Source: Alphaproteobacteria bacterium
GTDB taxonomy: Bacteria; Pseudomonadota; Alphaproteobacteria; Bin95
DNA: 64,000 nucleotides
NCBI GenBank assembly: GCA_965205265.1
Contig: CBDBGH010000003.1
Location: forward strand, 5,088,001 to 5,152,000
Direction: 5' to 3'
The notes below the pieces were generated by a model that did not search any database, was not told where the DNA came from, and was given only the letters and a program-made list of their open reading frames with translations. A program made the translations under genes and the position numbers. Positions 1-13,696 of the stretch are shown here, in pieces; the first letter of the stretch is position 1, and every line of letters starts with the position of its first letter.

Positions 1-546
1 GGTTTTTTCCAGGTGCGCGTCCTCTCCGTTCACCAGGTAGTTGTCGGGGTTCCATGGCGTTGCGTTGCGGCCGATGAAAGCGCGCAGGCGCTTCAGCTCG
101 CCGAGCAATTGCTCGGCGAGGACCTTGTCGCCGGTCGGCACGCGGCGGGCGGCGGGTCCGGCCGCTTCGCCGCCTTCCGGTTCTTCGGCCTCGCCGGCGA
201 GAAGACCCCGCACGAGGGCATCGGCCCTTCGCGCCGCCTGCGGTGTCTTGCCGGGCCGGAAATTGCCATTGCCGTCCAGGGCCTCCAGGACGTCGTCGCG
301 CACGGCCTCGAGAGCCTTGCGCATTTCGCCGTTCCGTGCGCGCAGCAGGTCGTTCTCCGCCGCCAGTTCGGGGGCGGCGCGCAGCAGGTCATGGTCCTCG
401 GGCGACACCAGGATGGCGATCGCCTTGCGCCAGGCGCTGCTCTCGTCCGGGGCGTCATCGGGGAGAGGCCCGCGGAGCATGTAGCCGTTCGGGGCCCGGT
501 CGATGAACCAGGGCGGCGGCGTGTGTCCTTCGATGTTCTTCATCAT
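1..546 (-). CDS. Phage-type hypothetical protein, 3' end outside the window
   Basis: Own translation MMKNIEGHTPPPWFID...LLRAAPELAAEN; the HTPxPW...AAPEL pattern is common in small phage proteins; coupled to the upstream gene. Confidence 0.7.
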   Translation of the reverse strand, partial: MMKNIEGHTPPPWFIDRAPNGYMLRGPLPDDAPDESSAWRKAIAILVSPEDHDLLRAAPELAAENDLLRARNGEMRKALEAVRDDVLEALDGNGNFRPGKTPQAARRADALVRGLLAGEAEEPEGGEAAGPAARRVPTGDKVLAEQLLGELKRLRAFIGRNATPWNPDNYLVNGEDAHLEKT

Positions 547-767
547 GATGCCCTATGGCGCTTCGGGCTGATGTCCCGGTCCTCCGCAAGTCCACCGTGC
601 TGCGGGCAGCCTTCGCCGAGAAGGCGTTCATGGCCGCAGGCGCTGCACCGGAACAGCGCGGTCGTCCATCCGCATTCGGGGCAATGCCAGAGCCCCGCCG
701 GCCGGTAGCGGCGGTGCCGGCAGACAACGCCCCAGACACGGGCGAGAAAGGTCGCGGCGACGATCAT
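543..767 (-). CDS. Small Cys-rich, putative zinc-binding protein
   Basis: MIVAATFLARVW...HCPECG...RCSACG...CPQHG; ATGA overlap with the upstream gene. Confidence 0.6.
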   Translation of the reverse strand: MIVAATFLARVWGVVCRHRRYRPAGLWHCPECGWTTALFRCSACGHERLLGEGCPQHGGLAEDRDISPKRHRAS

Positions 768-1009
768 GCATCCCCGTCGTCGCTGAATTTGCAGTAGCTC
801 CAGCCTCTCCAGCGCCGGTCGCGGCAGAAGACCTGGGGTTGCATGCTCGGAGACGGGCCGCGCGTTCCGCGGGCCAGGAAGAACCGGCCGGAGGGATAGT
901 CGGTCTCGATCCGGATGTCGCGCAGCTGTTTCGACCGTTGCCGCCGGGCGGCGGCGGCTTCGTCCGTGCTTTCGTAGAACTGCACCCGAACGTTGATCGC
1001 CCTGCTCAT
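764..1009 (-). CDS. Hypothetical protein, CRDRxWR family, copy 4
   Basis: MSRAINVRVQFY...SGRFFLAR...VFCRDRRWRGWSYCKF; ATGA-coupled. Confidence 0.75.
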   Translation of the reverse strand: MSRAINVRVQFYESTDEAAAARRQRSKQLRDIRIETDYPSGRFFLARGTRGPSPSMQPQVFCRDRRWRGWSYCKFSDDGDA

Positions 1010-1251
1010 TCCGGGAGACCCTCCGTTGGCCATACGCACCGGCTCCAGCCTCTCCAGCGCCGGTCCCTGCAGAACACCTTGCGCTGCGAGAGCGGATTGG
1101 CCTCGTCCGCCTTGCGGTACAGGAAGACCCGGCCGGACGCATGGTGAATGTCCGTCTCGACGGGCGCCCGCCTCGACAGTCTCTCCATGTCGGCGGCCGC
1201 AGCCTCGGAGGTCGTATAGAGGGCAACCCGGGAATCGTAGCTCGCGCTCAT
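1006..1251 (-). CDS. Hypothetical protein, CRDRxWR family, copy 3
   Basis: MSASYDSRVALY...HASGRVFLYR...VFCRDRRWRGWSRCVWP; ATGA-coupled. Confidence 0.75.
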   Translation of the reverse strand: MSASYDSRVALYTTSEAAAADMERLSRRAPVETDIHHASGRVFLYRKADEANPLSQRKVFCRDRRWRGWSRCVWPTEGLPE

Positions 1252-1496
1252 GCCGCCGCCACCGATCTCGGCCACTCGCACCGGCTGACGACACGCCAGC
1301 GCCGGTCGCGGCAGAGCACCCGGCGTTCTTTCCACCAGAGGTTCGGCTCGTCCGGGTTGCGGGCCAGGAAGCGCTGGCCGGTGAGTCTGTGGACCCTGAC
1401 GTAAACTCTCTTGGGGTTCGAGAGTCCGCTGCGGGCGGCACAGGCGTCCCGCCGGGTCCCGTAGAACTGCACCCGGCGGTCGATGCCGCTGCTCAT
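1248..1496 (-). CDS. Hypothetical protein, CRDRxWR family, copy 2
   Basis: MSSGIDRRVQFY...HRLTGQRFLAR...VLCRDRRWRVVSRCEWP; ATGA-coupled. Confidence 0.75.
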   Translation of the reverse strand: MSSGIDRRVQFYGTRRDACAARSGLSNPKRVYVRVHRLTGQRFLARNPDEPNLWWKERRVLCRDRRWRVVSRCEWPRSVAAA

Positions 1497-2005
1497 GACG
1501 GCGGGCCGTCCGGCCATTGGCAGGCCGCGAAGGGACGCCACACCTTGTCCCGGCAGAGGGCGTGGCGCGCCAGGTAACCTGACCGGATCAGAAACCGGCT
1601 GTCGGAGACAGGATGGCGAGCGATCTGGATGTGCATTGTGGCCGGGTGCCCGTCGCGCTCCTCGACAGCGGCGAAATCGCTTCCGAAGAACAGCACTTCC
1701 TCCGGACAGGTGAGCAGGGCGTCGATGCGGTTGGCCATCTCGTTGGCCCTGGGGGCCAGCGGCAGTGGATCGCCGTTTCTGTGAGCGGCGTTGCTCATGT
1801 CCAGAAGCAGGGCGTTGCAGTCGGCCAGCGCGGCGCGAAGCCGGACATTCCGTTCCTCCAGTTCCTCCCAGCAGAACGGGCAGATGGCGCCGTCGCGGCC
1901 CCAGTCATGGCGGGAGCCCAGTCTGGCGTCGCAAAGCTCCTTCAGCTTGGCCTGGGCGGCCTCGCTGCCCATGTCCACTTCGTGCCTGTAGCAGCCCCAG
2001 CCCAT
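1493..2005 (-). CDS. Hypothetical protein with N-terminal Cys motif and coiled segment, and C-terminal CRDKxWR domain (copy 1)
   Basis: MGWGCYRHE...CPFCWEE...HPVSDSRFLIR...LCRDKVWRPFAACQWP; RBS GGGGAG upstream. Confidence 0.75.
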   Translation of the reverse strand: MGWGCYRHEVDMGSEAAQAKLKELCDARLGSRHDWGRDGAICPFCWEELEERNVRLRAALADCNALLLDMSNAAHRNGDPLPLAPRANEMANRIDALLTCPEEVLFFGSDFAAVEERDGHPATMHIQIARHPVSDSRFLIRSGYLARHALCRDKVWRPFAACQWPDGPPS

Positions 2006-2094
2006 GGGTCTCACTCCCCGGTTGCAATCGTTCGTTCGGCGGCCATTCGCGCAGGCTGTTCCGGCGGCCCATGCGATGCCGGTCCTGAGCATGC

Positions 2095-2149
2095 AGTTTA
2101 CCGGCAGCGGGCAATTATGTCAATCCGATTGTCATGATAAGCGGATTGC
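2095..2149 (-). promoter_or_regulatory. Sigma70-type promoter (TTGACA-N17-TAAACT) overlapped by the tandem two-box motif
   Basis: -35 at 2118-2123, -10 at 2095-2100; boxes CAATCCGATTG-N6-TAAGCGGATTG at 2121-2148. Confidence 0.7.
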
Positions 2150-2275
2150 GGTTTTGTCCTCCAGATCGCGGGAGGGCACTGCGTTCATGGGCGATTTCCC
2201 TCCCTCCTGCCTTGCCCTTGGAGAGCGTCAAGCGCCTTGTCCCGGAAGCGGGCGCACGGGGAAGAACAATGCCGG

Positions 2276-2569
2276 TCAGGGTTCCATGGTGGAGTCGGGC
2301 TCCGCGGCCGTCGCGAGACCGGGAACCTCCTCCCGGAAAAAACGGCGCAGGCGGGACTTCATCGTCCCCCAATTGTCAAGGCCGCGCAGACAGTCCTCTA
2401 CGCCTTCCTTGACCCGGTCGGGGACCGGGCAAGCGTCGCCGGGCTCGAAGAGAAAGCGCTCGGGACGGCTCGGGCTCCAGGGGGTCTGCACGACATGGCC
2501 GATCTCGGCGCCTTCCGGGGTGGCCACTGCGGCCCGGTTGCCTGTTCGGGCGGAAACGGTGACTTGCAT
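2276..2569 (-). CDS. Hypothetical protein
   Basis: 97-aa ORF with RBS AAGGAG; same strand as the operon. Confidence 0.6.
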   Translation of the reverse strand: MQVTVSARTGNRAAVATPEGAEIGHVVQTPWSPSRPERFLFEPGDACPVPDRVKEGVEDCLRGLDNWGTMKSRLRRFFREEVPGLATAAEPDSTMEP

Positions 2570-2620
2570 GGGCGCTCCTTACGGAGTTTTCAAAGGGACT
2601 TGCAATAGTGAGTTGGCGGC

Positions 2621-2962
2621 TCACGCCACGGACCCGGTCTCGCTCCCCACGCTCTCCTTGGCGAAGGCCACGGCGTCCTTGAGCTGTTCGGCGGTCGCCG
2701 GCGTGGCGTGGAACCAGGCGACTGGCGGATGCGGCCGGACGGCGCTTTCGGCGAAGAGGGCCTCGACGCCGGCAATCAGCCGGGCGTTGATCTCCCGCAG
2801 TCGTGCGGCCTCCCTCTCCGCCGCATCGGCAATGCCGGCATGGACATAATCGACTTCCCTTGACGGATAGTCGCAGGTCCAGAGCCGCAGGCGCGGCGGC
2901 GGGTTCTTCGCGGTCTGCACATAGTGGGGAAGGCCAACGGCCGATTCCAGCTGAGCGGTCAT
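2621..2962 (-). CDS. Hypothetical protein
   Basis: MTAQLESAVG...; start abuts the stop of the upstream gene. Confidence 0.6.
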   Translation of the reverse strand: MTAQLESAVGLPHYVQTAKNPPPRLRLWTCDYPSREVDYVHAGIADAAEREAARLREINARLIAGVEALFAESAVRPHPPVAWFHATPATAEQLKDAVAFAKESVGSETGSVA

Positions 2963-3420
2963 CAGGGTGTCTCCGTCCTTCCCGACTCGGGTGCCGGGTC
3001 TTCGCCGATGTGCTGGAGGATGATGAACCGGGCATCGACGACCGCGCACAGCGGTAGCAGCGCCAGGAGGAAGATGCAGGCAGCCGGGTAGAGAAGCGGC
3101 AGACCCGGTTCGGCGTCCGGCGAGAGAATCTGCGTGGGAAGCGTGAATGCCCGGAGACCGGCCTCAAACACCATGATGCCGACCAGAAACACGACGGAGT
3201 AGATTGCGGCAAGGAGACCGAGGGTAGTGGGCTGGCGCCATGGCTTGACGGCGGACCGCACCCAGCCGTGGCGCAGGGCATCCCCGACAGGCCCCAGGGC
3301 GGGGACCATGTAGATGAGCATGACGGAAAGCGGGTCGACGACGGGATCCAGAAGCAGGCCGACGGCGGTCACCAGGAATACGGTCTTGACGACCAGGATG
3401 ACGAAGGTGGGGCCGTTCAT
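2962..3420 (-). CDS. Hypothetical membrane protein (about 4 TM segments)
   Basis: MNGPTFVILVVKTVFLVTAVGLLL...; several hydrophobic segments; ATGA-coupled. Confidence 0.65.
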   Translation of the reverse strand: MNGPTFVILVVKTVFLVTAVGLLLDPVVDPLSVMLIYMVPALGPVGDALRHGWVRSAVKPWRQPTTLGLLAAIYSVVFLVGIMVFEAGLRAFTLPTQILSPDAEPGLPLLYPAACIFLLALLPLCAVVDARFIILQHIGEDPAPESGRTETP

Positions 3421-4055
3421 GGCCGTGTTCCTTGCGGACGTTGATTCAGACCGGGCTCGGGGTGCGACCGAACCGGCTTCGAGGCTGCGGACATCACGAG
3501 CGCCGCGCGCCTGTGGGCGGCGAGGGCGTCTATGATGTCCAGCACCAATTGCTGCAGCCGCCTCTCGGAGGGCACGGGATCCAGCCACTCGAACTCGATC
3601 GCCGCTGCGCCCGCCCGGTCGTAGAAGACGCCGCTGAGCAGATCCGCCTGTCCCTGGCCGGCCGAAACCCGGTGCGGGTCTTCGCTAAGGTCAACCAGCC
3701 GGCAGCGGAAACGGGGCGCCCAGGTGTGGACGAGATAGGTCCGCCGCTCGCCGCTCGGCATGGGAAGACCGTGGGCGATCAACCAGCGGTCCCGACGCCA
3801 CTTCGGCTCCGGGGGCGTCTGGCCGAGCAGGCGGACGATGCGCATCTGAATGCGCGGCGGAACCTTATGGAGGTCCGCGGCCCAGCGCCTGATGCGGAAT
3901 CCCGGCACCCGGAGTTTCCGGGCAAGGGCGTGCAGGGACGGTTGCGGGAACACGAGGCGTCCCAGGCTGTCCCGGCCCGGACGCCCGCACAGGGCGCGCG
4001 CAAGGTCGAGAAAGGCTTTCCTGGAGCGGAATTCCGAAGGATTGTTCCCGGTCAT
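3417..4055 (-). CDS. Hypothetical protein, possible N-terminal HTH
   Basis: MTGNNPSEF...LHALARKLRVPGFRIRRWA...YLVHTWAPRFRCR; ATGA-coupled. Confidence 0.65.
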   Translation of the reverse strand: MTGNNPSEFRSRKAFLDLARALCGRPGRDSLGRLVFPQPSLHALARKLRVPGFRIRRWAADLHKVPPRIQMRIVRLLGQTPPEPKWRRDRWLIAHGLPMPSGERRTYLVHTWAPRFRCRLVDLSEDPHRVSAGQGQADLLSGVFYDRAGAAAIEFEWLDPVPSERRLQQLVLDIIDALAAHRRAALVMSAASKPVRSHPEPGLNQRPQGTRP

Positions 4056-4732
4056 CCAGGCGGCTCCGGCGAAGGGCCTGCGCTCGGGGACTCGTCCGGG
4101 CCGTCGGCCGGAGCCCCGAGACCGCGGGCTTTCCCCATCATGCGCGCCAGGACATGTTCCTGAAGCTCCATTATCCAGACGCGGTCGGTGCGCCCATCGG
4201 CGGAGTCGCGCCAGATCGCGGCTTGCTGGGCCATGGAGACCGCCGCGCCCAGATAGGCGGGAGTCGGTGTATGGAGGTCGAGCAGGCACCACATGACGCA
4301 GGACCGGACAGCTCCGAAATGGGGCACCGGGGTTGCGGGCAGTGCAGCGATCCGGTCGCGCAGCCTGATCGCCTCCATCCCGAAGGCCTGCGGCTCGCCG
4401 GCCTCGCCGTTGCCGGCCAGCCTTGCGAGCAGGGAGGCGGCCTTTGTGACAACGGGGTCCTCGAGCAGGGACGGGGTTCCCTGCCGCTGGACAAACCCTT
4501 CTTCCGACCATTCCCACGGGCCGGCGAGCGGACTGGCGTCGTCGGTGAACAGCCAGTGCCACCATGCGGCCCGCCTGTCGGCCGTCATGGCCTGCAGCAG
4601 CGCGACGAGCGTTCCGCCGGTCCGCTCGTTCTGCCTGCCGAGTTGCCCGGCGAGTGCATGGCGCGGCATCCGGTATCGTTCCTGATCGGTCAGGATACCG
4701 GATTGCAGCTCAGGGACCGGGTCCGTCATCAT
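4052..4732 (-). CDS. Hypothetical protein with one AxWxxWLF..SP domain
   Basis: MMTDPVPELQ...RAAWWHWLFTDDASPLAGPW; paralog of the adjacent gene. Confidence 0.65.
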   Translation of the reverse strand: MMTDPVPELQSGILTDQERYRMPRHALAGQLGRQNERTGGTLVALLQAMTADRRAAWWHWLFTDDASPLAGPWEWSEEGFVQRQGTPSLLEDPVVTKAASLLARLAGNGEAGEPQAFGMEAIRLRDRIAALPATPVPHFGAVRSCVMWCLLDLHTPTPAYLGAAVSMAQQAAIWRDSADGRTDRVWIMELQEHVLARMMGKARGLGAPADGPDESPSAGPSPEPPG

Positions 4733-5774
4733 GCGGTTCTCCTGTGGGTTCCGGAGCCCCTTCCGGGTCGAGCCGGAAATGCATGGCGAGCAACGCATCC
4801 GTTTCGGCGTTGGCCTGGGCGACCGGGTCCAGGGCGGCCGCCTCCCATCCCGCAACGGAGCGCAGCATGCCGACGGCCATCGAGAGGAACCGCGGGTCCC
4901 TGCGGTCGGGCTGGCCGGCCAGCCAGATCGCGGCCTCGCGGACAGCATGGAGCGCCGGCAAGGAGGAAGTGCGGGTTCTGCACAGTGTGTCGTGCCGCTC
5001 GACGAGATCGGGCGCGGGCTCGCCGCGGGCAAGGCGTCCGAAGCAGGCGCCCAGCATGGCGACGGGCTCGTCATGGAACCAGTTGCGGGCGGGACTTTCG
5101 GCACCGGAGAAAGCCCAGTGCCGCCATTCCGCGAATTCCTTTTCGGAGGTCCGGCTGAGCCGGGAAACCAGGCTCGAGGCCAGCTCGTCATTGCGCATGA
5201 CCAGAAATTCCGGCCGGTCGTCGGCCTGGGCAAAGCGCCGGCTGGCCGCTGCCATCGAGCGAAGGTTCCGCCTGATCGCGGCCTCGAGTTCGCCGGCCGG
5301 CAGACCCGACCCCCATACCCGGGCGCCGGCGGCCTGGGCGACCGCAGGCGTCAGCATTCCGGGAACCGACATCCGGCGGTCTCCCGAGAGCCAGAGGGCG
5401 GCCTGATGGGCTACCGCCGGGGCCGGCTGCAGGGGCTCGCGGGTTGCGCGCAGGCGTTCGGCAAGAGAGCGGAACGCCTCGGGCCGGTGCGGTTCGGCGC
5501 GCCCGAACTCGTCGAAAAGGCGCACGGCTTCAGGAAGAACGGGATGGCTGCGCCATGAGGAGGGCAGCGGGCTCTCGGGAGAGTCGAACAGCCATGCGCA
5601 CCAGGCGGCGAAGCCCTGCGGTGTCATCGCCTCCAGTCTGGCCGCGATGAGGCGCTCGCGTTCGCGGTTTTCAGCCCAGAGACCGAGACCGGTCCCCGGT
5701 GCCTGCCGGTCTTCGTGAGACGTTCCGGTATTCGGGTTCATCTGTGCGGCCTCGTGCGGCAAGGTAGAGGGCAA
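4710..5774 (-). CDS. Hypothetical protein with two AxWxxWxF..SP domains
   Basis: FAAWCAWLFDSPESPLPSSW and FAEWRHWAFSGAESPARNW; start may be 5741. Confidence 0.65.
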   Translation of the reverse strand: MPSTLPHEAAQMNPNTGTSHEDRQAPGTGLGLWAENRERERLIAARLEAMTPQGFAAWCAWLFDSPESPLPSSWRSHPVLPEAVRLFDEFGRAEPHRPEAFRSLAERLRATREPLQPAPAVAHQAALWLSGDRRMSVPGMLTPAVAQAAGARVWGSGLPAGELEAAIRRNLRSMAAASRRFAQADDRPEFLVMRNDELASSLVSRLSRTSEKEFAEWRHWAFSGAESPARNWFHDEPVAMLGACFGRLARGEPAPDLVERHDTLCRTRTSSLPALHAVREAAIWLAGQPDRRDPRFLSMAVGMLRSVAGWEAAALDPVAQANAETDALLAMHFRLDPEGAPEPTGEPHDDGPGP

Positions 5775-5807
5775 CAGCCTAGCATCCCGCCAAGAAAAAG
5801 CCGTGGC

Positions 5808-6392
5808 CTATGCGTATGCGGTCCACGGCAGCGGATCGAACGCGCCGTCCGGGCGCCTCTCGATCCGGATCGCCGCCGCGAAGCTGGCGATGCGCACGTC
5901 GTTCCGCGACGAGGCCCGGCGCCGGAAGGGGCGGCCGACGAAACGGTTCGGAACCGGGGTCGCTGTCCCCGTCATCGATCCGGTCGCCACGCTGTGCCGG
6001 GCGATCTCGCGAAGCCAGACCATGGTCCGGCCGGCGAGTGCGGTGACCTGGTAGAAATCGACATTGGTCTGGTTGTATCCCCAGCTGGAGGCGAGGATAT
6101 CGCCGACGGCCAGGGAATGCGGCGCGTTGCGCCTCCCGTCGGCGTGCCGGTGCCGCTCGCGCCGGTCCCTGAACATCCTCTCGATGGCGTTGTCGCGGCT
6201 TTCGATACTCGCGTAGCGAAAGCGCATGACCGGCTTCCGGGCCCTGCCCTCGAATCCGGCGAAACAGAACTCGGTCTTTCCCTCGACGACAATGTCCCAG
6301 AGCCAGGCGACAGCATCGCTCTGCGGGTCCTGGCGCCGGGTTGCGTGGGTGGGGAAGTAGTCTTCCCTGGAACGTGCGGCGGCTCGCGGCAT
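5808..6392 (-). CDS. Conserved phage/plasmid hypothetical protein
   Basis: Motif VGDILASSWGYNQTNVDFYQV recognised from MGE proteins; RBS GGAGGAG. Confidence 0.8.
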   Translation of the reverse strand: MPRAAARSREDYFPTHATRRQDPQSDAVAWLWDIVVEGKTEFCFAGFEGRARKPVMRFRYASIESRDNAIERMFRDRRERHRHADGRRNAPHSLAVGDILASSWGYNQTNVDFYQVTALAGRTMVWLREIARHSVATGSMTGTATPVPNRFVGRPFRRRASSRNDVRIASFAAAIRIERRPDGAFDPLPWTAYA

Positions 6393-6439
6393 GGCACTCT
6401 CCTCCCGAGGTCCTTATGACTGCCTTCCGACACGGTCCG

Positions 6440-6493
6440 AGCCTACCGTTCCTTTAGACATATGTCAAGTGGCTTGTTATTGTAAGCGGATTG
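6440..6493 (-). promoter_or_regulatory. Sigma70-type promoter (TTGACA-N17-TAGGCT) with tandem boxes
   Basis: -35 at 6463-6468, -10 at 6440-6445; boxes CAAGTGGCTTG-N6-TAAGCGGATTG. Confidence 0.65.
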
Positions 6494-6729
6494 CAATGAA
6501 AAGCGGCTTATGGGAAAACGGGGTTTGCGGAACGGCAGGACAGGCGCGGGACGCTTGAGCTGGCCGCGGTTGCCCCGGCAGGGTTGGAAACCCGGAGGCT
6601 GGTGTCGATGCCCCGTGAGTTCAGCCCCGATGGAGCGGTTCGTGCCCGAGAGAATGTCGGAAGTGCCGCCGTCGCGGAGATAGCCGCAGCGGGGTCACCG
6701 GATGCCGCTGAACGACATGATTGTCGTCA

Positions 6730-6783
6730 CAATCCGATTATTTTGGCAATCCGCTTGACACAGTCACGCGGGACGACTATAAG
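6730..6783 (+). promoter_or_regulatory. tRNA-array promoter (TTGACA-N17-TATAAG) with tandem boxes
   Basis: -35 at 6755-6760, -10 at 6778-6783; boxes CAATCCGATTA-N6-CAATCCGCTTG. Confidence 0.75.
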
Positions 6784-6893
6784 AGTTCCGCGAGACAGTC
6801 AAGAACAACGCCCTGTCGTTTGAGCCGATCTGCCGGCTCCGTCGGGGCAGAGGAGGCGGACATAGAGACAGACCGAGAGGATCCCGGTCAGGC

Positions 6894-6969
6894 GCCGCAT
6901 TAGCTCAATGGACAGAGCGACGGTTTTCTAAACCGCGGGTTGCGGGTTCGAGTCCTGCATGCGGCCCCA
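6894..6969 (+). tRNA. tRNA-Arg(TCT)
   Basis: Cloverleaf, anticodon loop TTTCTAA, CCA. Confidence 0.9.
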
Positions 6970-6993
6970 GCCTCCGGGTTTCCAGCCCTGCCG

Positions 6994-7084
6994 GGGAGGG
7001 TGCCAGAGAGGCTGAATGGACCGGACTGTAAATCCGGCGGTACCGAAAGGGCCCGCGCAGGTTCGAATCCTGCTCCTCCCACCA
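6994..7084 (+). tRNA. tRNA-Tyr(GTA)
   Basis: Loop CTGTAAA, long variable arm, ACCA. Confidence 0.92.
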
Positions 7085-7127
7085 GGGAACCGGGATACGG
7101 GGAAGCCGGGTCACGCCGACCTCCGGC

Positions 7128-7203
7128 GCCGCATTAGCTCAGCTGGTAGAGCAGTCGCCTTGTAAGCGACCGGTCGCGGGTTCGAGGCCTGCATGCGGCT
7201 CCA
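7128..7203 (+). tRNA. tRNA-Thr(TGT)
   Basis: Loop CTTGTAA, CCA. Confidence 0.92.
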
Positions 7204-7206
7204 CCC

Positions 7207-7282
7207 GGCCCCTTCGTCTAAAGGTCAGGATACGAGATTCTCAATCTCGGGATGGCGGGTTCAAGTCCCCCAGGGGCCTCCA
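7207..7282 (+). tRNA. tRNA-Glu(CTC)
   Basis: Loop TTCTCAA, Glu-type D arm, CCA. Confidence 0.88.
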
Positions 7283-7386
7283 GAGGAACACTTACGGGCG
7301 CATGCCCCGTCTGCATGCGGGAAGAGGAACGAAGAAGGAGAAACAGCGCCGGGACACGGTGAAACACGACTCGGACATGCGCGGAT

Positions 7387-7461
7387 GCCGCATTAGCTCA
7401 ATTGGCAGAGCGGTCGTTTCGTAATCGACTGACGCGGGTTCGACTCCTGCATGCGGCTCCA
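7387..7461 (+). tRNA. tRNA-Thr(CGT)
   Basis: Loop TTCGTAA, CCA. Confidence 0.88.
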
Positions 7462-7484
7462 GCCGGGATTTCCGGAAGCGGGAC

Positions 7485-7560
7485 GACCCCTTGGTCTAAC
7501 GGTCAGGATACGAGACTTTCAATCTCGGGGCGGCGGGTTCGATTCCCCCAGGGGTCACCA
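7485..7560 (+). tRNA. tRNA-Glu(TTC)
   Basis: Loop CTTTCAA, ACCA. Confidence 0.88.
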
Positions 7561-7563
7561 AAC

Positions 7564-7657
7564 GGAAGGATGCCGGAGTCCGGTTTATCGGGGCGGGTTG
7601 CTAACCCGTTGTGCGCCGCAAGGCGCGCCGTGGGTTCGAATCCCACTCCTTCCGCCA
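7564..7657 (+). tRNA. tRNA-Ser(GCT)
   Basis: Loop TTGCTAA, long variable arm, GCCA. Confidence 0.92.
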
Positions 7658-7696
7658 CCGGCCGCCGGGACAGCAAGGGGAGACGGAAGAAAACAC

Positions 7697-7771
7697 GATG
7701 CGGTGGGAGAGAGGCTTATCCGCGGGGCCGCAAACCCCGTTACGCCGGTTCGAATCCGGCCCGCATCTCCA
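7697..7771 (+). tRNA. tRNA-Cys(GCA) with C33
   Basis: Loop CCGCAAA, U73, CCA. Confidence 0.85.
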
Positions 7772-7779
7772 GAACGGCA

Positions 7780-7857
7780 CGGGGTGTGGCGCAGTCTGGT
7801 CAGCGCGTCTGCTTTGGGAGCAGGTGGCCGCAGGTTCGAATCCTGCCACCCCGACCA
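7780..7857 (+). tRNA. tRNA-Pro(TGG)
   Basis: Loop TTTGGGA, C1:G72, ACCA. Confidence 0.92.
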
Positions 7858-7865
7858 TGACACGG

Positions 7866-7939
7866 GCGTTCGTAGTTCAAAGGGAGAATACCAGGTCGCC
7901 ATCCTGGTGATCCCGGTTCGAGTCCGGGCGGACGCTCCA
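7866..7939 (+). tRNA. tRNA-Gly(GCC) with C33
   Basis: Loop TCGCCAT, GCG acceptor, U73, CCA. Confidence 0.85.
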
Positions 7940-7948
7940 GAACATCCA

Positions 7949-8024
7949 TGGCCAGTAGCTCAACCGGCAGAGCACTGGATTGTTACTCCAGGGGTTGCAG
8001 GTTCGAAGCCTGCCTGGCCAGCCA
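7949..8024 (+). tRNA. tRNA-Asn(GTT)
   Basis: Loop TTGTTAC, U1:A72, GCCA. Confidence 0.9.
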
Positions 8025-8025
8025 A

Positions 8026-8135
8026 GCGTCCGTGGTTCAAAGGAACGGTTCCGGGCTTCCGGGCGGCCGTTCCGAGGAAGGGCACCGGTTTTTTCAACAC
8101 CGGGGATGCGGGTTCGAATCCCGCCGGACGCTCCA
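8026..8135 (+). tRNA. Aberrant 110-nt tRNA-like gene: Gly-type acceptor, D-arm insertion, expanded anticodon loop
   Basis: Perfect GCGTCCG/CGGACGC acceptor, TCCA end, perfect T arm; extra hairpin of about 30 nt; loop TTTTTCAAC. Confidence 0.65.
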
Positions 8136-8197
8136 GACACGTTACCGGCCGGCAGGCATCGCCAAGGTCCTGCCGGCCGGCACCGAGGGGACACGGA

Positions 8198-8473
8198 ATG
8201 GGACAGACAGTGTACAAGGAACATGTCACCGACGCCCTTGAGGGCGCCATGACCGGCCTGGCCCGCGAGGCGGGCGTGACCATGCCCTCGCTGATGGGCG
8301 CCATCGTGGTGTCGGTGCACCAGTCGCAGGAGGACGGGGCGCCGCCCGGGCTCCATATCGCGACGAACCTGCCCCGGGAGCTGTTTCACGAGGCTGTGGA
8401 ACGCCTTGCGGACCGGCAGGGGGCAGGGAAGGTCGAGCCGGACACGGAGGGCTATGCATCGGTCGGTTCGTAA
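8198..8473 (+). CDS. Hypothetical protein within the tRNA array
   Basis: MGQTVYKEHVTDALEG...; RBS GAGGGG. Confidence 0.65.
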   Translation: MGQTVYKEHVTDALEGAMTGLAREAGVTMPSLMGAIVVSVHQSQEDGAPPGLHIATNLPRELFHEAVERLADRQGAGKVEPDTEGYASVGS

Positions 8474-8478
8474 CTGGC

Positions 8479-8555
8479 GGGAGAGTGGCGGAAAAGGCAT
8501 ACGCGCCGGATTTAGGTTCCGGTCTATCCGGGTTCGAGTCCCGGCTCTCCTACCA
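8479..8555 (+). tRNA. tRNA-Leu(TAG), short variable loop
   Basis: Loop TTTAGGT, Leu-type D arm, ACCA. Confidence 0.88.
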
Positions 8556-8574
8556 GACGGCCGTGAAAGGACAG

Positions 8575-8648
8575 GCGGGTGTAGTTCAAAGGTAGAATGT
8601 CAGGTTTCCACCCTGAATATGCGGGTTCGATTCCCGCCATCCGCTCCA
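8575..8648 (+). tRNA. tRNA-Gly(TCC)
   Basis: Loop TTTCCAC, TCCA. Confidence 0.92.
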
Positions 8649-8679
8649 GCGCCGGCCTGGGAACGGAATTCAACATGAG

Positions 8680-8752
8680 GGCCTCATAGCTCAGTGGATA
8701 GAGCAGCGGTTTCCGGGACCGCAGGTCGAAGGTTCAAGTCCTTCTGAGGCCT
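8680..8752 (+). tRNA. tRNA-Arg(CCG), no encoded CCA (CTA instead)
   Basis: Loop TTCCGGG, full cloverleaf. Confidence 0.88.
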
Positions 8753-8839
8753 CTAGGACACCCCGGCACGACGCGCGTGGAAAGAGAGAACAAGACGCGG
8801 TTGCGCAGGGTTGAAGAAGGGAACGGGAGTGAAGTAAAG

Positions 8840-8931
8840 GGAAGCGTGCCGGAGTGGCTTAACGGGGCAGTCTTGAAAACTGACATGGGCCGGGAGGTCC
8901 ATCCTGGGTTCGAATCCCAGCGCTTCCTCCA
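8840..8931 (+). tRNA. tRNA-Ser(TGA)
   Basis: Loop CTTGAAA, long variable arm, CCA. Confidence 0.92.
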
Positions 8932-8964
8932 TCCCCGTTCCTTCATGCGGGAGAAACAGTTCCA

Positions 8965-9039
8965 GGTCTCGTCGTCTAGTGGTAAGGACACCGGATTGTC
9001 GATCCGGCAACGCGGGTTCAATTCCCGCCGGGACCGCCA
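8965..9039 (+). tRNA. tRNA-Asp(GTC)
   Basis: Loop TTGTCGA, G73, CCA. Confidence 0.9.
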
Positions 9040-9047
9040 AAACAAAC

Positions 9048-9123
9048 GGGGTCGTAGCTCAATCGGGAGAGCGTCTGCTTTGCAAGCAGAGGGTTGAGGG
9101 TTCAAGTCCCTCCGATTCCACCA
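9048..9123 (+). tRNA. tRNA-Ala(TGC)
   Basis: Loop TTTGCAA, G3:U70, ACCA. Confidence 0.92.
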
Positions 9124-9207
9124 ATGGCCTCTCCACGGCCCACCAAGGCCCGTGGAGAGGCCTCCAGATCGTACAGGGAGAAGATCCCGAAAAGAACACA
9201 GAAGGAC

Positions 9208-9283
9208 GGTCTCGTAGCTCAATGGACAGAGCGTCTGACTACGGATCAGAAGGTTGCGGGTTCGACTCCTGCCGAGACCTCCA
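9208..9283 (+). tRNA. tRNA-Arg(ACG)
   Basis: Loop CTACGGA, CCA. Confidence 0.92.
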
Positions 9284-9286
9284 GAT

Positions 9287-9362
9287 GCCCGGGTAGCTCA
9301 GCTGGTAGAGCGCTGCGTTGAAGGCGCAGGCGTCGGTGGTTCGATCCCATCCCCGGGCACCA
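9287..9362 (+). tRNA. tRNA-Phe(GAA)
   Basis: Loop TTGAAGG, ACCA. Confidence 0.92.
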
Positions 9363-9366
9363 TTGC

Positions 9367-9442
9367 GGCCCCGTAGCCAAGCGGTCAAAGGCTCCGGGTT
9401 CTGATCCCGGGATCCCTGGTTCGAATCCAGGCGGGGCTTCCA
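9367..9442 (+). tRNA. tRNA-Gln(CTG)
   Basis: Loop TTCTGAT, Gln-type D arm, CCA. Confidence 0.9.
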
Positions 9443-9579
9443 GTTGCACCGGAGCGGTAAAGGCTATGGCGAAGTTTTCGGGCGAAGCCGCTAAAGGAGC
9501 CATGCGGTCCGGGTCGCCGCGATCCGATCCGGGTTCCGGCAAACCGGCCGCGCGGGCCTGCGGGAAGGAAGGTCGAAGG

Positions 9580-9891
9580 ATGATCCAGACGATAGAATGG
9601 GACAGCTACACATACCGGTCCTATGTAGGCCAGTGCGAAGAGAACATCGCCCGCCTCGAGGCGGAGCTCGATCGGGCGAAGCACCATCTGTCGTTCGCGC
9701 AGGCGCAGTTCCAGGCGGTTGTTCCGTTGGGGATGGCAGATTCCAGCCTGCCGTCCAATTTCGGCGAAATCGTGCTGGCGGCCGAATTCAACGCGGGAAT
9801 GCTTCCCGAGGGTGTCGAGATCGGCGCCAAGATCAGGAAGATTGCCGCCGACATGATGACGGGCAGCCAGTCGGCCCCTGTTCGGCGGTAG
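9580..9891 (+). CDS. Hypothetical coiled-coil protein
   Basis: MIQTIEWDSYTYRSY...; purine-rich RBS. Confidence 0.6.
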   Translation: MIQTIEWDSYTYRSYVGQCEENIARLEAELDRAKHHLSFAQAQFQAVVPLGMADSSLPSNFGEIVLAAEFNAGMLPEGVEIGAKIRKIAADMMTGSQSAPVRR

Positions 9892-9980
9892 CTCGACCCG
9901 GCAGGCCGCCACGCCCGGTGCCGGTCCAGGTATGCCGGCCACCATCGTCATGGACATGATGTTCGACCATGCATACTGGC

Positions 9981-10013
9981 GTTAGACAACAATAACCAGT
10001 ATTGTTGTCTAAC
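9981..10013. promoter_or_regulatory. Perfect 14-bp inverted repeat, putative operator
   Basis: GTTAGACAACAATA-ACCAG-TATTGTTGTCTAAC immediately before the ATG at 10015. Confidence 0.65.
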
Positions 10014-10014
10014 C

Positions 10015-11097
10015 ATGCCATCCGCCCTCCGGTTCCACAGCCATTCCGGCCACGCCGCCTACCAGGATCTCCGGCGTCGGCTCATGGATGCGGCCGTGTC
10101 GGAAATCCGCGGCACCCCGACCCGGCTCGCCGTCAAGGGCCGCTATTTCTGGTACGACAAATACCGGGTCGGGACGGAGGTGAGACAGCGCTATATCGGC
10201 CCCGAGACCGACGGGCTGCTCGCCAGGCTGGACCGCCTGGCCGATTTGCGCAGGGATCGAAGGGCCACGGAGCGGGAACAGGCCCGACTCATCCGTTTCC
10301 TGCGGGCCGACAGCTATAACTCGCTGGACCGCGGCACCGGCAGCCTCCTGGCCTCCTTCGCCGGATGCGGCGTCTTCCGCCTGGGCGGCACGCTCATCGG
10401 GGCTGTCGCCTTCCAGCATTACGAGGGCGAACTCGGCGTGGTCATGGATTTCGAGCGGATAGCCCGGACCGACGACATCGACATCGCCAGCTTCGAACGA
10501 CTGTCCTTCGCCATCGGCGACAGCGTCGAAACGCCCTTGGAGGAGGTCTTTCGAGAGCTGAAGTTCCAGCCCGTTCCGTCCCTGGACCAGCGGCATGTCT
10601 GGCGCTGGCGCCAGACGACCGGCTCCGTCCTGGTCGAATTCCTGATGCCGGCGCACGGGGAGGAAGGGATACGCAGACTGCCCGCCCTGGGCGTCAGCGC
10701 CCGTGCGCTTCGTCATCTGGACTATCTTCTCGAAGATCCCGTTCCGGCCGTGTCTCTCTACCGGTCAGGCGTGCTTGTCCGGATTCCGCGTCCCGAGCGG
10801 TTCGCGATCCACAAGCTCATCGTGGCCGAACGCCGTCGGGGCGGCCCGGATTCCCTGAAGGCCTCCAAGGACCGGGCCCAGGCGGATTTCCTCATTGCCG
10901 CCCTGGCGGAAATGCGCCCGGATGAACTGGCTCTCGCCTATGGCGAGGCCATGGGTCGAGGCCCCGGCTGGAGCAATCGCATAACGGCAAGCCTGAACAG
11001 GCTGCCGGGCGCAAGGGAGCGCGTCCTGGGCGTTGTCGGCGCCGACGACGCCCATCCGCAGCCGTCGGCCTCCTCAACCATATCCGGCCCCGCCTGA
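10015..11097 (+). CDS. GSU2403-family nucleotidyltransferase-fold protein
   Basis: GVFRLGGTLIGAVAF, RTDDIDIA, VRIPRPERFAIHKLIVA, KASKDRAQA motifs. Confidence 0.85.
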   Translation: MPSALRFHSHSGHAAYQDLRRRLMDAAVSEIRGTPTRLAVKGRYFWYDKYRVGTEVRQRYIGPETDGLLARLDRLADLRRDRRATEREQARLIRFLRADSYNSLDRGTGSLLASFAGCGVFRLGGTLIGAVAFQHYEGELGVVMDFERIARTDDIDIASFERLSFAIGDSVETPLEEVFRELKFQPVPSLDQRHVWRWRQTTGSVLVEFLMPAHGEEGIRRLPALGVSARALRHLDYLLEDPVPAVSLYRSGVLVRIPRPERFAIHKLIVAERRRGGPDSLKASKDRAQADFLIAALAEMRPDELALAYGEAMGRGPGWSNRITASLNRLPGARERVLGVVGADDAHPQPSASSTISGPA

Positions 11098-11498
11098 AGC
11101 AGGATCCGACATTCCGAATTCCAAGGTCCGCTGTTCCACAATATCGGGACTGGAGCCCCGCAAAGTTTGCAGCGGTTTTTTTGGTTGACTGCGGCGATTT
11201 GAACGCTAGATTGGCGGCCCATTGATCCACGGGGCTTGAGGCAGAACCTCTCCTTCGTGTTCAAGACGGGGAAGACAGGACCATGGCGAGAGTCATAAAA
11301 CCGAGCGTCAGCCGCAAAGCGTGCTTGAGCTTGCCGGTCCGTCACCAATTGTGGCCGTGGTGGCCTCATATTATCTGCGGCGTGTAAGGGCAGGACCCGG
11401 ACCCGTTAACCGAAGCAGTCCTGTGGCAAGCACCTGAAGCGGTTCCAATCCGTCCCGGTGGCCGAACGACCCCTTCCGCCGAAGCAGCCTCCATCCAT

Positions 11499-11574
11499 AG
11501 CCCTATAGCCAAGCGGTCAAAGGCTCCGGGTTTTGATCCCGGGATCCCGGGTTCGAATCCCGGTAGGGCTTCCA
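11499..11574 (+). tRNA. tRNA-Gln(TTG)
   Basis: Loop TTTTGAT, CCA. Confidence 0.9.
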
Positions 11575-11597
11575 ATACACACAACCTTTGCAACCGG

Positions 11598-11673
11598 GCG
11601 CCTGTAGTTCAACTGGCAAGAACATCGGTCTCCAAAACCGAGGATACAGGTTCGAATCCTGTCGGGCGCGCCA
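11598..11673 (+). tRNA. tRNA-Trp(CCA)
   Basis: Loop CTCCAAA, GCCA. Confidence 0.92.
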
Positions 11674-11707
11674 ACCCTGAAACCGGGAGGTACGGACAGA
11701 AAACGGA

Positions 11708-11784
11708 GCGCGGGTGGTGAAACTGGCAAACACACGGCATTCAAACTGTCGGCACTGGGGGTTCGAGTCCCTCCCCGCGTACCA
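11708..11784 (+). tRNA. tRNA-Leu(CAA), short variable loop
   Basis: Loop TTCAAAC, Leu-type D arm, ACCA. Confidence 0.88.
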
Positions 11785-11792
11785 CCCCTTCC

Positions 11793-11866
11793 AGGCGTGT
11801 AGCTTAATGGTAGAGCAGCCGACTGATAATCGGCCGGTCGAGGTTCAACTCCTTGCACGCCTACCA
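11793..11866 (+). tRNA. tRNA-Ile(GAT)
   Basis: Loop CTGATAA, ACCA. Confidence 0.9.
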
Positions 11867-11883
11867 ACCGCATATGCCACGGC

Positions 11884-11958
11884 AGCCCCATAGCCAAGCG
11901 GCAAAGGCTCCGGGTTTACACCCCGGGATCCCCGGTTCGAGTCCGGGTGGGGCTACCA
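11884..11958 (+). tRNA. tRNA-Val(TAC) on a tRNA-Gln-like body
   Basis: Loop TTTACAC, A73, CCA; D arm and anticodon stem match the Gln genes. Confidence 0.85.
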
Positions 11959-11961
11959 ATC

Positions 11962-12035
11962 GGGCCCGTAGTTCAACGGTAGAACGCTCGACTTTTAATC
12001 GAGGAATGAGAGTTCGATTCTCTCCGGGCCTTCCA
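11962..12035 (+). tRNA. tRNA-Lys(TTT)
   Basis: Loop CTTTTAA, CCA. Confidence 0.9.
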
Positions 12036-12045
12036 TCATCCTGCT

Positions 12046-12119
12046 GTGCCGGTAGCTTAGTCGGTCAAAGCGCCAGGTTGTGGCCCTGGAGATCGGGTTC
12101 GATTCCCGCCGGCACCCCA
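12046..12119 (+). tRNA. tRNA-His(GTG)
   Basis: Loop TTGTGGC, C73, CCA; short T stem; no encoded G-1. Confidence 0.82.
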
Positions 12120-12205
12120 CAGCACCGTTATATGCCCGGCGGCCGGGTGCCGCCGTTCCAGGACGGCGCCCTTCCCGCAGGAATTGCGGACCCCTCTAGC
12201 GGAAG

Positions 12206-13135: not shown

Positions 13136-13204
13136 GAGCGGCTCCTCTGGCTACATGCCGTTCGCCAGTCCGTTGCATTGCAACCTAAGTGGGCGATGTG
13201 AAAA

Positions 13205-13610: not shown

Positions 13611-13619
13611 CCATCGGAT

Positions 13620-13696
13620 TGCGGGATGGCGCAGACGGCAAGCGCGCCTGGCTCATAACCAGGAGGTCGAAGGTTCGAGTCCTTCTCCCGCAACCA
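13620..13696 (+). tRNA. tRNA-Met(CAT), initiator-like body
   Basis: Loop CTCATAA, TGCGGGA/TCCCGCA acceptor, ACCA. Confidence 0.9.

Follow-up and report, generated by a model that had tools for sequence, protein, structure and literature searches.

What kind of protein is encoded by four small consecutive genes that share a domain of no recognised family, and what might such an array do for the DNA that carries it? The question was raised by a stretch of 64,000 nucleotides from an alphaproteobacterial contig (hereafter the window), for which an initial annotation had proposed four tandem paralogs with translational coupling on a mobile element, possibly acting in host takeover or anti-defence. 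The features of this locus are listed in Table 1.

Table 1. Features of the paralog operon and its upstream region, in window positions.
Feature	Position	Strand	Description
Palindrome	2121..2148	.	14-nt arms, 86% complementary; abuts or overlaps the -35 hexamer
Promoter-like site	2123..2095	minus	TTGACA-17-TAAACT; 10/12 consensus match; precedes the g1 start by about 90 nt
g1	2005..1493	minus	170 aa; two-domain fusion
g1, N-terminal orphan domain	about 1826-2005		followed by a helical linker
g1, family domain	1499-1714		residues 98-169
g2	1496..1248	minus	82 aa; family domain, pI 11.6; ATG overlaps the g1 stop
g3	1251..1006	minus	81 aa; family domain, pI 9.2; ATG overlaps the g2 stop
g4	1009..764	minus	81 aa; family domain, pI 10.2; ATG overlaps the g3 stop
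g5	767..543	minus	74 aa; hydrophobic N-terminus, CxxC...CxxC zinc-ribbon-like core; ATGA-coupled to g4 and g6
g6	546..<1	minus	at least 182 aa, runs off the window; orphan; ATG overlaps the g5 stop (ATGA)

The four genes (g1 to g4) are indeed consecutive and paralogous. In pairwise BLASTP comparisons, g4 shares 43% protein identity with g3 (E 6e-20) and 39% with g2 (E 6e-12), and g2 shares 30% with the C-terminal part of g1 (E 2e-10). The proposed coupling was recovered at all three junctions between them, where tcat on the plus strand reads as ATGA on the coding strand (1493-1496, 1248-1251 and 1006-1009). This chain extends past position 764, beyond the coordinates given at first, to g5 and g6, all junctions between g1 and g6 reading ATGA and a total of seven such junctions occurring across the gene run. 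A Shine-Dalgarno-like GGGGAG precedes the g1 start by 8 nt, and GGAGG is present upstream of g4. Tandem Repeats Finder returned nothing for positions 500-2300, and DNA identity between the copies is just 44-57%; they therefore represent an old duplication rather than a DNA repeat array.

In principle, such an arrangement could consist of duplicates undergoing decay, or of ORFs that arose by chance in GC-rich DNA, as long ORFs occur in every frame of this 68% GC region and the family is extremely rare. Moreover, the language-model recognition scores (2009 and 2070) are below 2300, a value reached by 91% of known families, and NG86 dN/dS between the paralogs is near 1 (0.56-1.28). The latter values are saturated and GC3-biased and do not themselves show constraint, and dN/dS was dropped as a selection test in favour of synonymous variation and a frame test. 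The latter test scored codon usage by log-likelihood after training on 13 genes of the window with Pfam support, for which it chose the correct frame in 13/13 cases; the annotated frame was the sole positive one of six for each of g1-g4, and also the sole positive one for g5 (0.106). GC3 reaches 0.83-0.87 in g1-g4, compared with a GC2 of 0.50-0.59. All four frames are intact with identical domain ends, and at 6 of the 11 residues invariant among the copies the synonymous codon varies (R63, for instance, is encoded by CGC, AGG, CGC and CGG). The start codons are supported because outside homologues share the same start and end positions; orthologues found on other contigs have identities of 57-73% and conserved loops, and the domain yields a confident AlphaFold model. 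Judged by their sequences, g1-g4 are real protein-coding genes conserved at the protein level, and decay or chance is an extremely improbable explanation.

The four-way alignment of the domain contains 11 invariant columns (V9, A19, F44, L45, R47, C62, R63, D64, W67, R68 and C73, in g4 numbering). When the whole family is considered, V9, A18, L45, C62, D64, W67, R68 and C73 are invariant, and D6, R8, R47 and R66 are nearly so. The conserved polar residues thus comprise four Arg, one Trp and two Asp, and the conserved Cys pair noted in the initial annotation is found in every domain as C62 and C73. The pattern of about 80 residues that had been described for each gene is present in all four, but in g1 it is confined to the last ~75 residues, the first ~60 belonging to a different orphan domain. 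It holds in the four-way alignment except that g3 reads RVFL instead of RF(F/L). Likewise, the CRD(R/K)xWR signature has CRD in all four copies, but CMD, CAD and CND also occur in outside members. The description of the array as a diversified cassette is correct in that the middles have diverged, but each orthologue group conserves the variable loop (residues 48-58): in g4 and the outside proteins P0005 and P0006, 9 of its 11 residues are identical, yet it differs between paralogs. In addition, g4 clusters with these outside orthologues and not with g2 or g3 (support 94/98). It follows that the paralogs are old and specialised, not recently hypervariable.

To describe the extent of the family, an exhaustive HMMER scan of 1.84 billion representatives was combined with word-indexed searches. 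Six outside members (P0005-P0007 and P0017-P0019) were identified, all of them metagenome proteins of 77-83 aa with shared ends, giving a total of 10 domains in the searched collections. P0017 and P0018 are carried by contigs of 4,216 and 16,854 bases, respectively. P0005 and P0006 are orthologues of g4, with identities of 73% and 57-59%, respectively. One further hit, P0008 (149 aa, E 4.3e-5), contains a three-fold internal repeat and matches just profile positions 53-77; it was rejected as a member and excluded from the alignments. Using a curated profile cut-off, or E ≤0.01 where none exists, as the criterion for membership in known families, none of g1-g4 (0/4) reached any cut-off in Pfam, NCBIfam, PHROGs v4 or PADLOC-DB v2, none of the outside members (0/6) reached any Pfam cut-off, and the family had no sequence match among PDB sequences. 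No match was obtained by tblastn of g4 against 72,556 plasmids and 50,697 phage records, or by megablast of positions 1-6000 against the plasmids. Among species-representative genomes, a set outside which the source genome falls, 37 pattern matches were found and two passed tblastn. Both were rejected, leaving no family member in this set: L001 overlaps a 431-aa ORF in a different reading frame, and L002 matches the motif over 11 residues within a 71-aa ORF, which runs antisense to an ORF of 377 aa. The motif strings of the family are not mentioned in the literature searched, that is, outside subscription journals, and the best ESM Atlas feature scores (0.77 for g4 and 0.83 for g1) are below the lead level of 0.9.

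These results agree with the initial view that the family is unrecognised. The profile search, which had been suggested for phage and plasmid proteins and was run on the 1.84 billion representatives, finds metagenome proteins only, and a match to a characterised family, which would have spoken against that view, was found in none of Pfam, NCBIfam, PHROGs, PADLOC, PDB and Foldseek. As far as sequence comparison goes, the family is an extreme orphan, and a lineage-specific, dispensable role is possible for a family so rare.

The structure prediction suggested by the same annotation was also carried out. AlphaFold2 on a 7-sequence alignment gave a model with a mean pLDDT of 81.1 and a pTM of 0.65, containing a helix at residues 15-25 and strands at 32-37, 42-47, 59-62 and 67-69; the predicted order of elements in this ~80-residue alpha/beta domain is beta1-alpha1-beta2-beta3-beta4-beta5. 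Foldseek found 0 matches at E ≤0.001 in PDB (both models) and BFVD, the best E values being 0.55 and 0.13, respectively, and the best TMq 0.26-0.36. The top rows that recurred in both PDB searches were Tudor (PHF19), the BrxR WYL domain and the UBC/UEV sheet, all of which likewise have a short antiparallel meander sheet on one helix. With E values of 0.55-2, probability ≤0.13, TM ≤0.31 and no sequence similarity, these rows are indistinguishable from noise. Tudor, WYL and other SH3-like small barrels were rejected, failing E ≤0.001 / TM about ≥0.5 in both PDB and BFVD, and a likeness of the first half to SPOR- or RRM-like beta-alpha-beta-beta units was set aside, with support from neither Pfam nor Foldseek.

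The N-terminal part of g1 is a second orphan domain with a CxxH...CxxC pattern, which is shared with 8 outside proteins of 97-195 aa. A total of 19 columns are invariant in 9/9 sequences, including C5, H8, C42 and C45, and the domain opens with 11 residues identical in all nine members. Its closest relative is 74% identical over the N-terminal part and has an unrelated C-terminus, and tblastn of the member P0013 found no match in the plasmids or phages. P0013 and P0015, both carrying the N-terminal domain, lie on contigs of 87,440 and 176,830 bases. Seven of the nine members match the same part of the DUF6875 profile (PF21780, about positions 14-51), all below its gathering score of 24.5 bits (best 16.8 for P0009; 13.2 for P0001). 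This likeness adds no mechanism, since DUF6875 has no known function. As for g5, its CPEC and CSAC knuckles are 8 residues apart, compared with about 10-20 in the zinc-ribbon criterion, and the 14 Pfam zinc-ribbon-type families that matched were all below cut-off (best 18.5 versus 25.7 bits).

The two-domain structure of g1 raises the question of whether it is the main gene of a swappable or immunity-like array, with g2-g4 as spare C-terminal heads or immunity-like paralogs. The N-terminal module carries other C-terminal parts elsewhere, three standalone copies of the family domain directly follow g1, and a 33-nt stretch over the motif, in which g3 and g4 differ by one Arg codon (AGG in g3, CGC in g4) compared with 57% identity overall, could be a conversion tract. 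However, no toxin family was matched in g1-g6, toxin and immunity genes do not alternate, and the CDI immunity protein rows of Foldseek (E 0.8-1.7) are noise. Besides, the copies are not silent spares, since every one of them is translationally coupled and begins at an individual start codon. We consider a spare-head or immunity arrangement highly improbable.

The same coupling could instead serve to deliver the products of g1-g4, and perhaps of g5, in fixed proportion for a hetero-oligomer assembled through the common core, with a metal possibly shared between Cys pairs. All four copies have the same invariant core, two Cys per domain are too few for a metal site in one chain, and the charges computed at pH 7 are complementary (-4.9 for g1, versus +12.6, +2.7 and +5.5 for g2, g3 and g4). 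However, ATGA coupling is common to the whole run rather than specific to the paralogs. In addition, P0005, a g4-type protein, lies on a 7,340-base contig, and the word-indexed searches that found it detected no g2- or g3-type partner anywhere; the P0007 group, on contigs up to 55,455 bases, was likewise found by such searches without these partners. Hence, the domain does not need the other paralogs in order to exist. A complex prediction for g3 and g4 (alignments A5 and A4) scored 0.18 against a mark of 0.32, which is evidence neither for nor against. We regard an obligate-ratio assembly of this type as distinctly unlikely.

Our own tentative reading, held with considerable doubt, is that the paralogs may serve as binding proteins without enzymatic activity, most of them basic, for which nucleic acid would be the preferred ligand. 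Binding is favoured over catalysis by the small size of the domain (~80 aa), by the fact that no catalytic family was matched and by the conserved polar residues, which are Arg, Trp and Asp. The target would preferably be RNA or DNA, or else a host protein with an acidic surface, because three of the four domains (Table 1) and the outside members computed (P0005, P0006 and P0007, three of the six; pI 9.2-10.1) are basic, the g1 copy being the exception with a pI of 6.5. Neither the profile libraries nor Foldseek against PDB and BFVD gave a match to a nucleic-acid-binding fold or family. The invariant beta4-turn-beta5 hairpin (C-x-D-x-R-W-R) and residues R8 and R47 would make up a shared surface for contacts, rich in Arg and Trp, on the open sheet face; the location of the conserved Arg on one face was reasoned from strand alternation and not from model coordinates. 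The Cys pair might stabilise this hairpin or bind metal, and the paralog-specific loop 48-58 would provide target specificity. In g1, the family domain is tethered to the CxxH...CxxC knuckle domain and may act as an adaptor, because the knuckle domain occurs elsewhere with other C-terminal parts. The likely role of such binding proteins would be in establishing or maintaining a mobile element in its host. Alternatively, the Cys pair could be a sign of redox or metal chemistry instead.

Further examination of the upstream region showed that the promoter which had been assigned to the operon has the consensus -35 hexamer, but its -10 hexamer departs from the consensus. Three such promoter-like sites occur in 7 kb, compared with 0.4 +/- 0.6 in shuffles. 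The adjoining palindrome is a possible operator. A scan of positions 1-7000 detected no minus-strand terminator, and a terminator after g4 was rejected, as the RNA fold of positions 547-780 has a z score of 0.37 and this stretch is g5 coding sequence. We also rejected a single-strand promoter of the Frpo type: the single-stranded DNA fold of positions 2006-2275 (270 nt) is no more stable than those of shuffles, with z scores of +1.65 in the coding-strand sense and +0.35 on the other strand and with 189/200 and 128/200 shuffles, respectively, folding at least as well.

The operon lies within a one-directional run of orphan genes, beside IS elements and an array of 28 tRNA genes located between positions 6894 and 13696 (about 4.1 per kb by ARAGORN, with 29 Rfam matches above the gathering score). 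The density and number of these genes place the array within the tRNA array unit definition given by Tran et al. 2015 (PMC4758250), namely a minimum of 20 tRNA genes with a density of two per kilobase or higher. AlpA-type excisionases are found in the region, genes for an RNA ligase of the Rnl1 type and a kinase of the zeta/AAA_33 type are located nearby, and relatives of the gene that opens the run occur on 2,824 plasmid records, of which 2,597 are typed as conjugative. The setting is thus mobile-element-like, as had been proposed, and the window covers just part of the element. Within its 64 kb, no relaxase, oriT, type IV secretion, mating-pair, ssb, psiB or ardA-type gene was detected (Pfam, 50 ORFs), and tblastn of g6 against the plasmids had no match.

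An alternative is that the paralogs are inhibitors of host defence or factors for takeover, each binding and blocking its own host protein, from a defence system or a housekeeping function, early after arrival of the element in the cell, much like the anti-defence islands in plasmid leading regions. The run consists of tightly coupled small orphan genes in one direction and starts with a relative of conjugative plasmid genes, and leading-region anti-defence genes are reported to lie all on one strand (PMC11541004). The tRNA array is also relevant, such arrays being called a putative antidefence system in another report (PMC12803027), as are the RNA ligase and kinase; the paralog-specific loops would suit different targets. 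On the other hand, the conjugation genes listed above were not seen among the 50 ORFs scanned in the window, the upstream 270 nt have no Frpo-like promoter, and no known anti-defence gene is found nearby; for g1-g4, Pfam and PHROGs, in which some such families are included, were empty. The family is also absent from the very plasmid and phage records in which spread anti-defence families would be expected, and its proteins are basic rather than acidic, which speaks against DNA mimics. Overall, we consider an anti-defence or takeover function rather unlikely. A more specific proposal would combine it with the binding reading: an integrated conjugative-type element whose four paralogs, representing a new small basic binding fold, bind with g5 to host RNA or RNA-targeting defence proteins and act with the tRNA array, RNA ligase and kinase against tRNA-directed immunity. 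This scenario is a long shot.

If the genes are expressed, a domain without detectable kin in sequence or predicted fold occurs four times in one mobile-element operon. Its novelty rests on absent matches and not on a demonstrated mechanism, and the functional pointers are limited to charge, conservation and neighbourhood in a rare family of ten domains. Nevertheless, the two Cys, one Trp and four Arg, along with the paralog-specific loops, provide clear mutational handles.

Compact orphan operons beside tRNA arrays are places where new functions in element-host conflict have been found. In the orphan cassettes of polymorphic toxins, tandem paralog arrays follow a modular main gene; similarly, the C-terminal domain of the longer first gene is repeated here as standalone, diverged copies downstream. 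The present array differs from such cassettes in that g1-g6 include no toxin or immunity family, there is no alternation, and all copies are translationally coupled. The other system for comparison is the leading-region establishment and anti-defence island. The Frpo/ssi promoter of such islands is reported to be a stable single-stranded DNA hairpin with -35 and -10 elements (PMC11541004), whereas no such hairpin is present upstream of g1; moreover, the oriT, relaxase, ssb, psiB and ardA-type genes are not seen in the window, and the plasmid and phage collections yielded no member of the family. What the two have in common is a set of many small, mostly uncharacterised genes on one strand (PMC11541004).

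At every junction of the four tandem minus-strand genes g1 to g4, the plus strand reads tcat, which corresponds to ATGA on the coding strand, with the ATG of the downstream gene overlapping the TGA of the upstream gene. The products of g2, g3 and g4 and the final ~75 residues of g1 were aligned over their full length, revealing 11 invariant columns (V9, A19, F44, L45, R47, C62, R63, D64, W67, R68 and C73; g4 numbering). Pairwise BLASTP gave 43% identity for g4/g3 (E 6e-20), 39% for g4/g2 (E 6e-12) and 30% for g2/g1 (E 2e-10). Thus, the four tandem paralogs described in the initial annotation, coupled by ATGA and sharing a pattern of ~80 residues, are supported at all 3 junctions and by sequence similarity; in g1, the pattern is confined to the C-terminal ~75 residues, whereas the first ~60 belong to another orphan family. 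A family profile run against 1,051 stop-to-stop segments from all frames detected exactly these four domain copies in the window (next match, E 0.27).

Because long ORFs fill every frame of this region, which has a G+C content of 68%, the coding status was tested directly. The four frames have GC3 values of 0.83-0.87 and GC2 values of 0.50-0.59. A log-likelihood ratio of codon usage, which was trained on 13 window genes with Pfam support and chose the correct frame for all 13, was positive only in the annotated frame of g1 (0.405), g2 (0.194), g3 (0.197), g4 (0.239) and the next downstream gene, g5 (0.106), the other five frames being negative in each case. Moreover, six of the 11 residues identical across the paralogs use more than one synonymous codon (R63, CGC/AGG/CGC/CGG; R68, AGA/AGA/CGT/CGT), and conservation therefore acts on the protein rather than on a DNA motif. 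Outside homologues of the domain match the g1-g4 copies in length and ends. Seven of the eight relatives of the g1 N-terminal domain begin with the same first residues as g1, which favours the start at 2005 over the upstream ATG at 2092. The dN/dS values between paralogs (0.56-1.28) are saturated and uninformative. To the reading that these are non-functional ORFs of a GC-rich region we give the least credence.

The domain family is very rare. When the four-domain profile proposed in the initial annotation was searched with HMMER against all 1,835,955,588 sequences representing about 15 billion proteins, six scored an E no higher than 0.001: three from the window, two real outside members (P0006 and P0007) and P0008, a 149-aa, internally repeated protein that matches the motif only and was rejected. 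Word-indexed searches of 5.8 billion clusters identified one outside member with a 4-sequence profile and six with a 7-sequence profile, all unnamed and originating from ENA or Logan assemblies. P0005 (73%) and P0006 (59%) are g4-like, and P0007, P0017, P0018 and P0019 (77-83 aa) form a second subfamily. In the resulting ten-domain alignment, the invariant set is reduced to V9, A18, L45, C62, D64, W67, R68 and C73, with D6, R8, R47 and R66 near-invariant. The proposed conserved Cys pair (C62 and C73) is thus present in all ten domains; the proposed CRD motif keeps its C and D, but three outside members have M, A or N in place of its R. No family member was found in one genome each of 185,579 species, where two candidates were rejected as alternative-frame artefacts, or by tblastn in 72,556 plasmids and 50,697 phage records. 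The family matches no Pfam, NCBIfam, PHROGs or PADLOC family and no PDB sequence even at E 10, and four of its motif strings retrieved no paper in a full-text search of openly accessible literature.

AlphaFold2 models reached a pLDDT of 67.6 with four sequences and 81.1 with seven (pTM 0.65; 23 residues at pLDDT 90 or above), the predicted order being a short beta1 (8-12), a helix (15-25) and strands at 32-37, 42-47, 59-62 and 67-69. Foldseek at E no higher than 0.001 retrieved nothing from PDB with either model, or from BFVD. The best results were E 0.55 and 0.13, with TM no higher than 0.36, and the structures that repeatedly ranked highest (Tudor, WYL, UBC-like sheets and CDI immunity) are at noise level. 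By all tests applied, the family lies outside known families and folds, newness here meaning absence of matches; the initial annotation likewise did not recognise the family.

The N-terminal domain of g1 is shared by eight outside proteins of 97-195 aa with variable C-terminal parts; the closest, P0009, shows 74% identity in this domain and has an unrelated C-terminus. Nineteen columns are invariant in all nine sequences, including the first 11 residues, C5, H8, C42 and C45, and the CxxH...CxxC pattern suggests a zinc knuckle that may bind metal. DUF6875 matched seven of the nine members below threshold (best 16.8 bits vs a cut-off of 24.5), and no match was found in PDB, phages or plasmids. 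So invariant an N-terminus is unusual for proteins with 46-59% overall identity. One of the four paralogs is fused to a second orphan domain.

Most of the domains are basic, with pI values of 11.6 (g2), 9.2 (g3), 10.2 (g4) and 9.2-10.1 (P0005, P0006 and P0007, the outside members computed); the g1 copy has a pI of 6.5 and its N-terminal part 5.3. The conserved polar residues (arginines, one tryptophan and two aspartates) cluster in the beta4-turn-beta5 hairpin, which also bears the first Cys. In the variable loop 48-58, nine of 11 residues are identical among g4, P0005 and P0006, and the loop is similar within the P0007 group, yet unrelated between paralogs. A maximum-likelihood tree places g4 with P0005/P0006 (support 94/98) and, weakly, the g1 domain with the P0007 group (71/84). 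These results make the paralogs old, each constrained in its own way. In sum, g1-g4 are four real and coupled paralogs, ancient in origin, of an orphan alpha/beta domain of ~80 aa. The diversified cassette proposed initially holds insofar as the loops differ between paralogs, but their age and constraint are unlike a recently hypermutating one, and a swappable or immunity-like cassette is quite improbable. It is also unlikely that the four products are subunits of one hetero-oligomer, a reading weakened by g4-type and P0007-type genes found elsewhere for which no g2/g3 partner was detected. Our tentative preference is for small, non-enzymatic binding proteins, in which the invariant Arg/Trp/Cys hairpin would form a common contact or structural core and loop 48-58 would act as a specificity element, and the net charge of the domains would make nucleic acid the likeliest ligand. 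The weight of the finding is limited by the rarity of the family and by evidence on function that consists of charge, conservation and neighbourhood; the remaining probability goes to functions not named here.

Features of the window, with coordinates and strand
Feature	Coordinates	Strand	Remarks
g1	2005..1493	-	170 residues
g1 N-terminal domain	1826-2005	-	first ~60 residues; second orphan family
g2	1496..1248	-	82 residues
g3	1251..1006	-	81 residues
g4	1009..764	-	81 residues
g5	543-767	-	74 aa; ATG overlaps g4 stop, stop overlaps g6 ATG
g6	1-546	-	at least 182 aa; orphan; runs off window
Promoter-like site	2123..2095	-	TTGACA-17-TAAACT; full match at -35, 4/6 at -10
Palindrome	2121-2148		14-nt arms, 86% complementary; AT-rich patch abutting/overlapping -35 hexamer
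First gene of minus-strand run	5808-6392	-	matches phrog_37844
tRNA array	6894-13696	+	28 tRNA genes (ARAGORN), 29 Rfam matches; about 4.1 per kb
tRNA array blocks	6894-8132, 8479-9442, 11499-12119, 13620-13696	+	one strand
Orphan ORF	9466-9891		interrupts tRNA array
NTP_transf_8 nucleotidyltransferase gene	10015-11097		interrupts tRNA array
SocA/Panacea-domain gene	16528-17064
Pentapeptide-repeat protein	17995-18867
Stand-alone GyrB-like gene	19424-21631		phrog_543 topoisomerase II large subunit; no GyrA-like partner recognised
UPF0236-type transposase gene	31685-33067	+	460 aa; brackets CRISPR locus
CRISPR locus	35326-37426		~11-unit array, period 66, beside cas2/cas1
cas2	36121-36510		type II-like
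cas1	36491-37426		type II-like
UPF0236-type transposase gene	37517-38899	-	identical to the other copy, inverted
Rnl1-type RNA ligase gene	44521-45789	-
Zeta-toxin/AAA_33-type kinase gene	46122-46835	+	divergent from Rnl1-type gene

The four genes are part of a longer coupled operon. The supposed spacer after g4 turned out to be coding: the N-terminus of g5 is hydrophobic, and its CPEC...CSAC is a zinc-ribbon-like core by pattern, all zinc-ribbon matches being sub-threshold. Further upstream, ATGA junctions occur at starts 4055 and 3420, and genes overlap by 1 nt at 2962; the entire minus-strand run 6392..1 is thus characterised by coupling, and none of its proteins has a Pfam family. Orphan genes lie on one strand at 2276-6392 (-), and the products of 4710-5774 and about 4052-4732 apparently have a repeated Trp-rich segment in common, judged by eye only. 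For the first gene of the run, tblastn matches, all annotated as hypothetical, were found on 2,824 plasmid records (2,597 typed conjugative), and the match adjoins ParB-domain genes in two alphaproteobacterial plasmids. An operon promoter of its own, as initially claimed, is plausible from the sequence upstream of g1, where the -35 hexamer is consensus but only 4/6 positions agree at -10; three such sites occur in the first 7 kb vs 0.4 ± 0.6 expected. The adjoining palindrome is a possible operator. No single-strand-promoter-type fold was found upstream of g1 (z +1.65 and +0.35), by the criteria of PMC11541004.

The contig that bears the window comprises 5,463,552 bases, and the replicon is therefore chromosome-sized. 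The window also holds IS21, IS4-type and TnpB elements, AlpA and HTH_17 excisionase-like genes, and genes for a Uma2 nuclease and a DpdF-like RecQ helicase. Unusual genes cluster at 17071-21631 and 55838-57097: those for two ankyrin-repeat proteins, which match PADLOC PDC-M72A/Ankyrin models, and the pentapeptide-repeat, GyrB-like and SocA/Panacea-domain genes. At the CRISPR locus, an intact effector gene was not recognised, and the flanking transposase genes suggest that it has been IS-disrupted or IS-mobilised. The Rnl1-type ligase and zeta/AAA_33 kinase genes resemble an RNA-repair-like pair and share their region with the tRNA array. The window revealed no relaxase, oriT or secretion gene. 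Taken together, the IS elements, the excisionase-like genes, the tRNA array and the conjugative-plasmid relatives make the neighbourhood mobile-element-like, as the initial annotation had supposed. It had also suggested anti-defence or host-takeover factors; such a role, directed at proteins, suits this setting but is rather doubtful, and binding proteins with nucleic acid as the likelier ligand remain our tentatively preferred reading. The tRNA array is divergent from the gene run bearing g1-g4 and covers all 20 amino acids by our count. It agrees with the tRNA array unit as defined in PMC4758250, and islands and ICEs are reported to carry tRNA arrays (PMC5468388).
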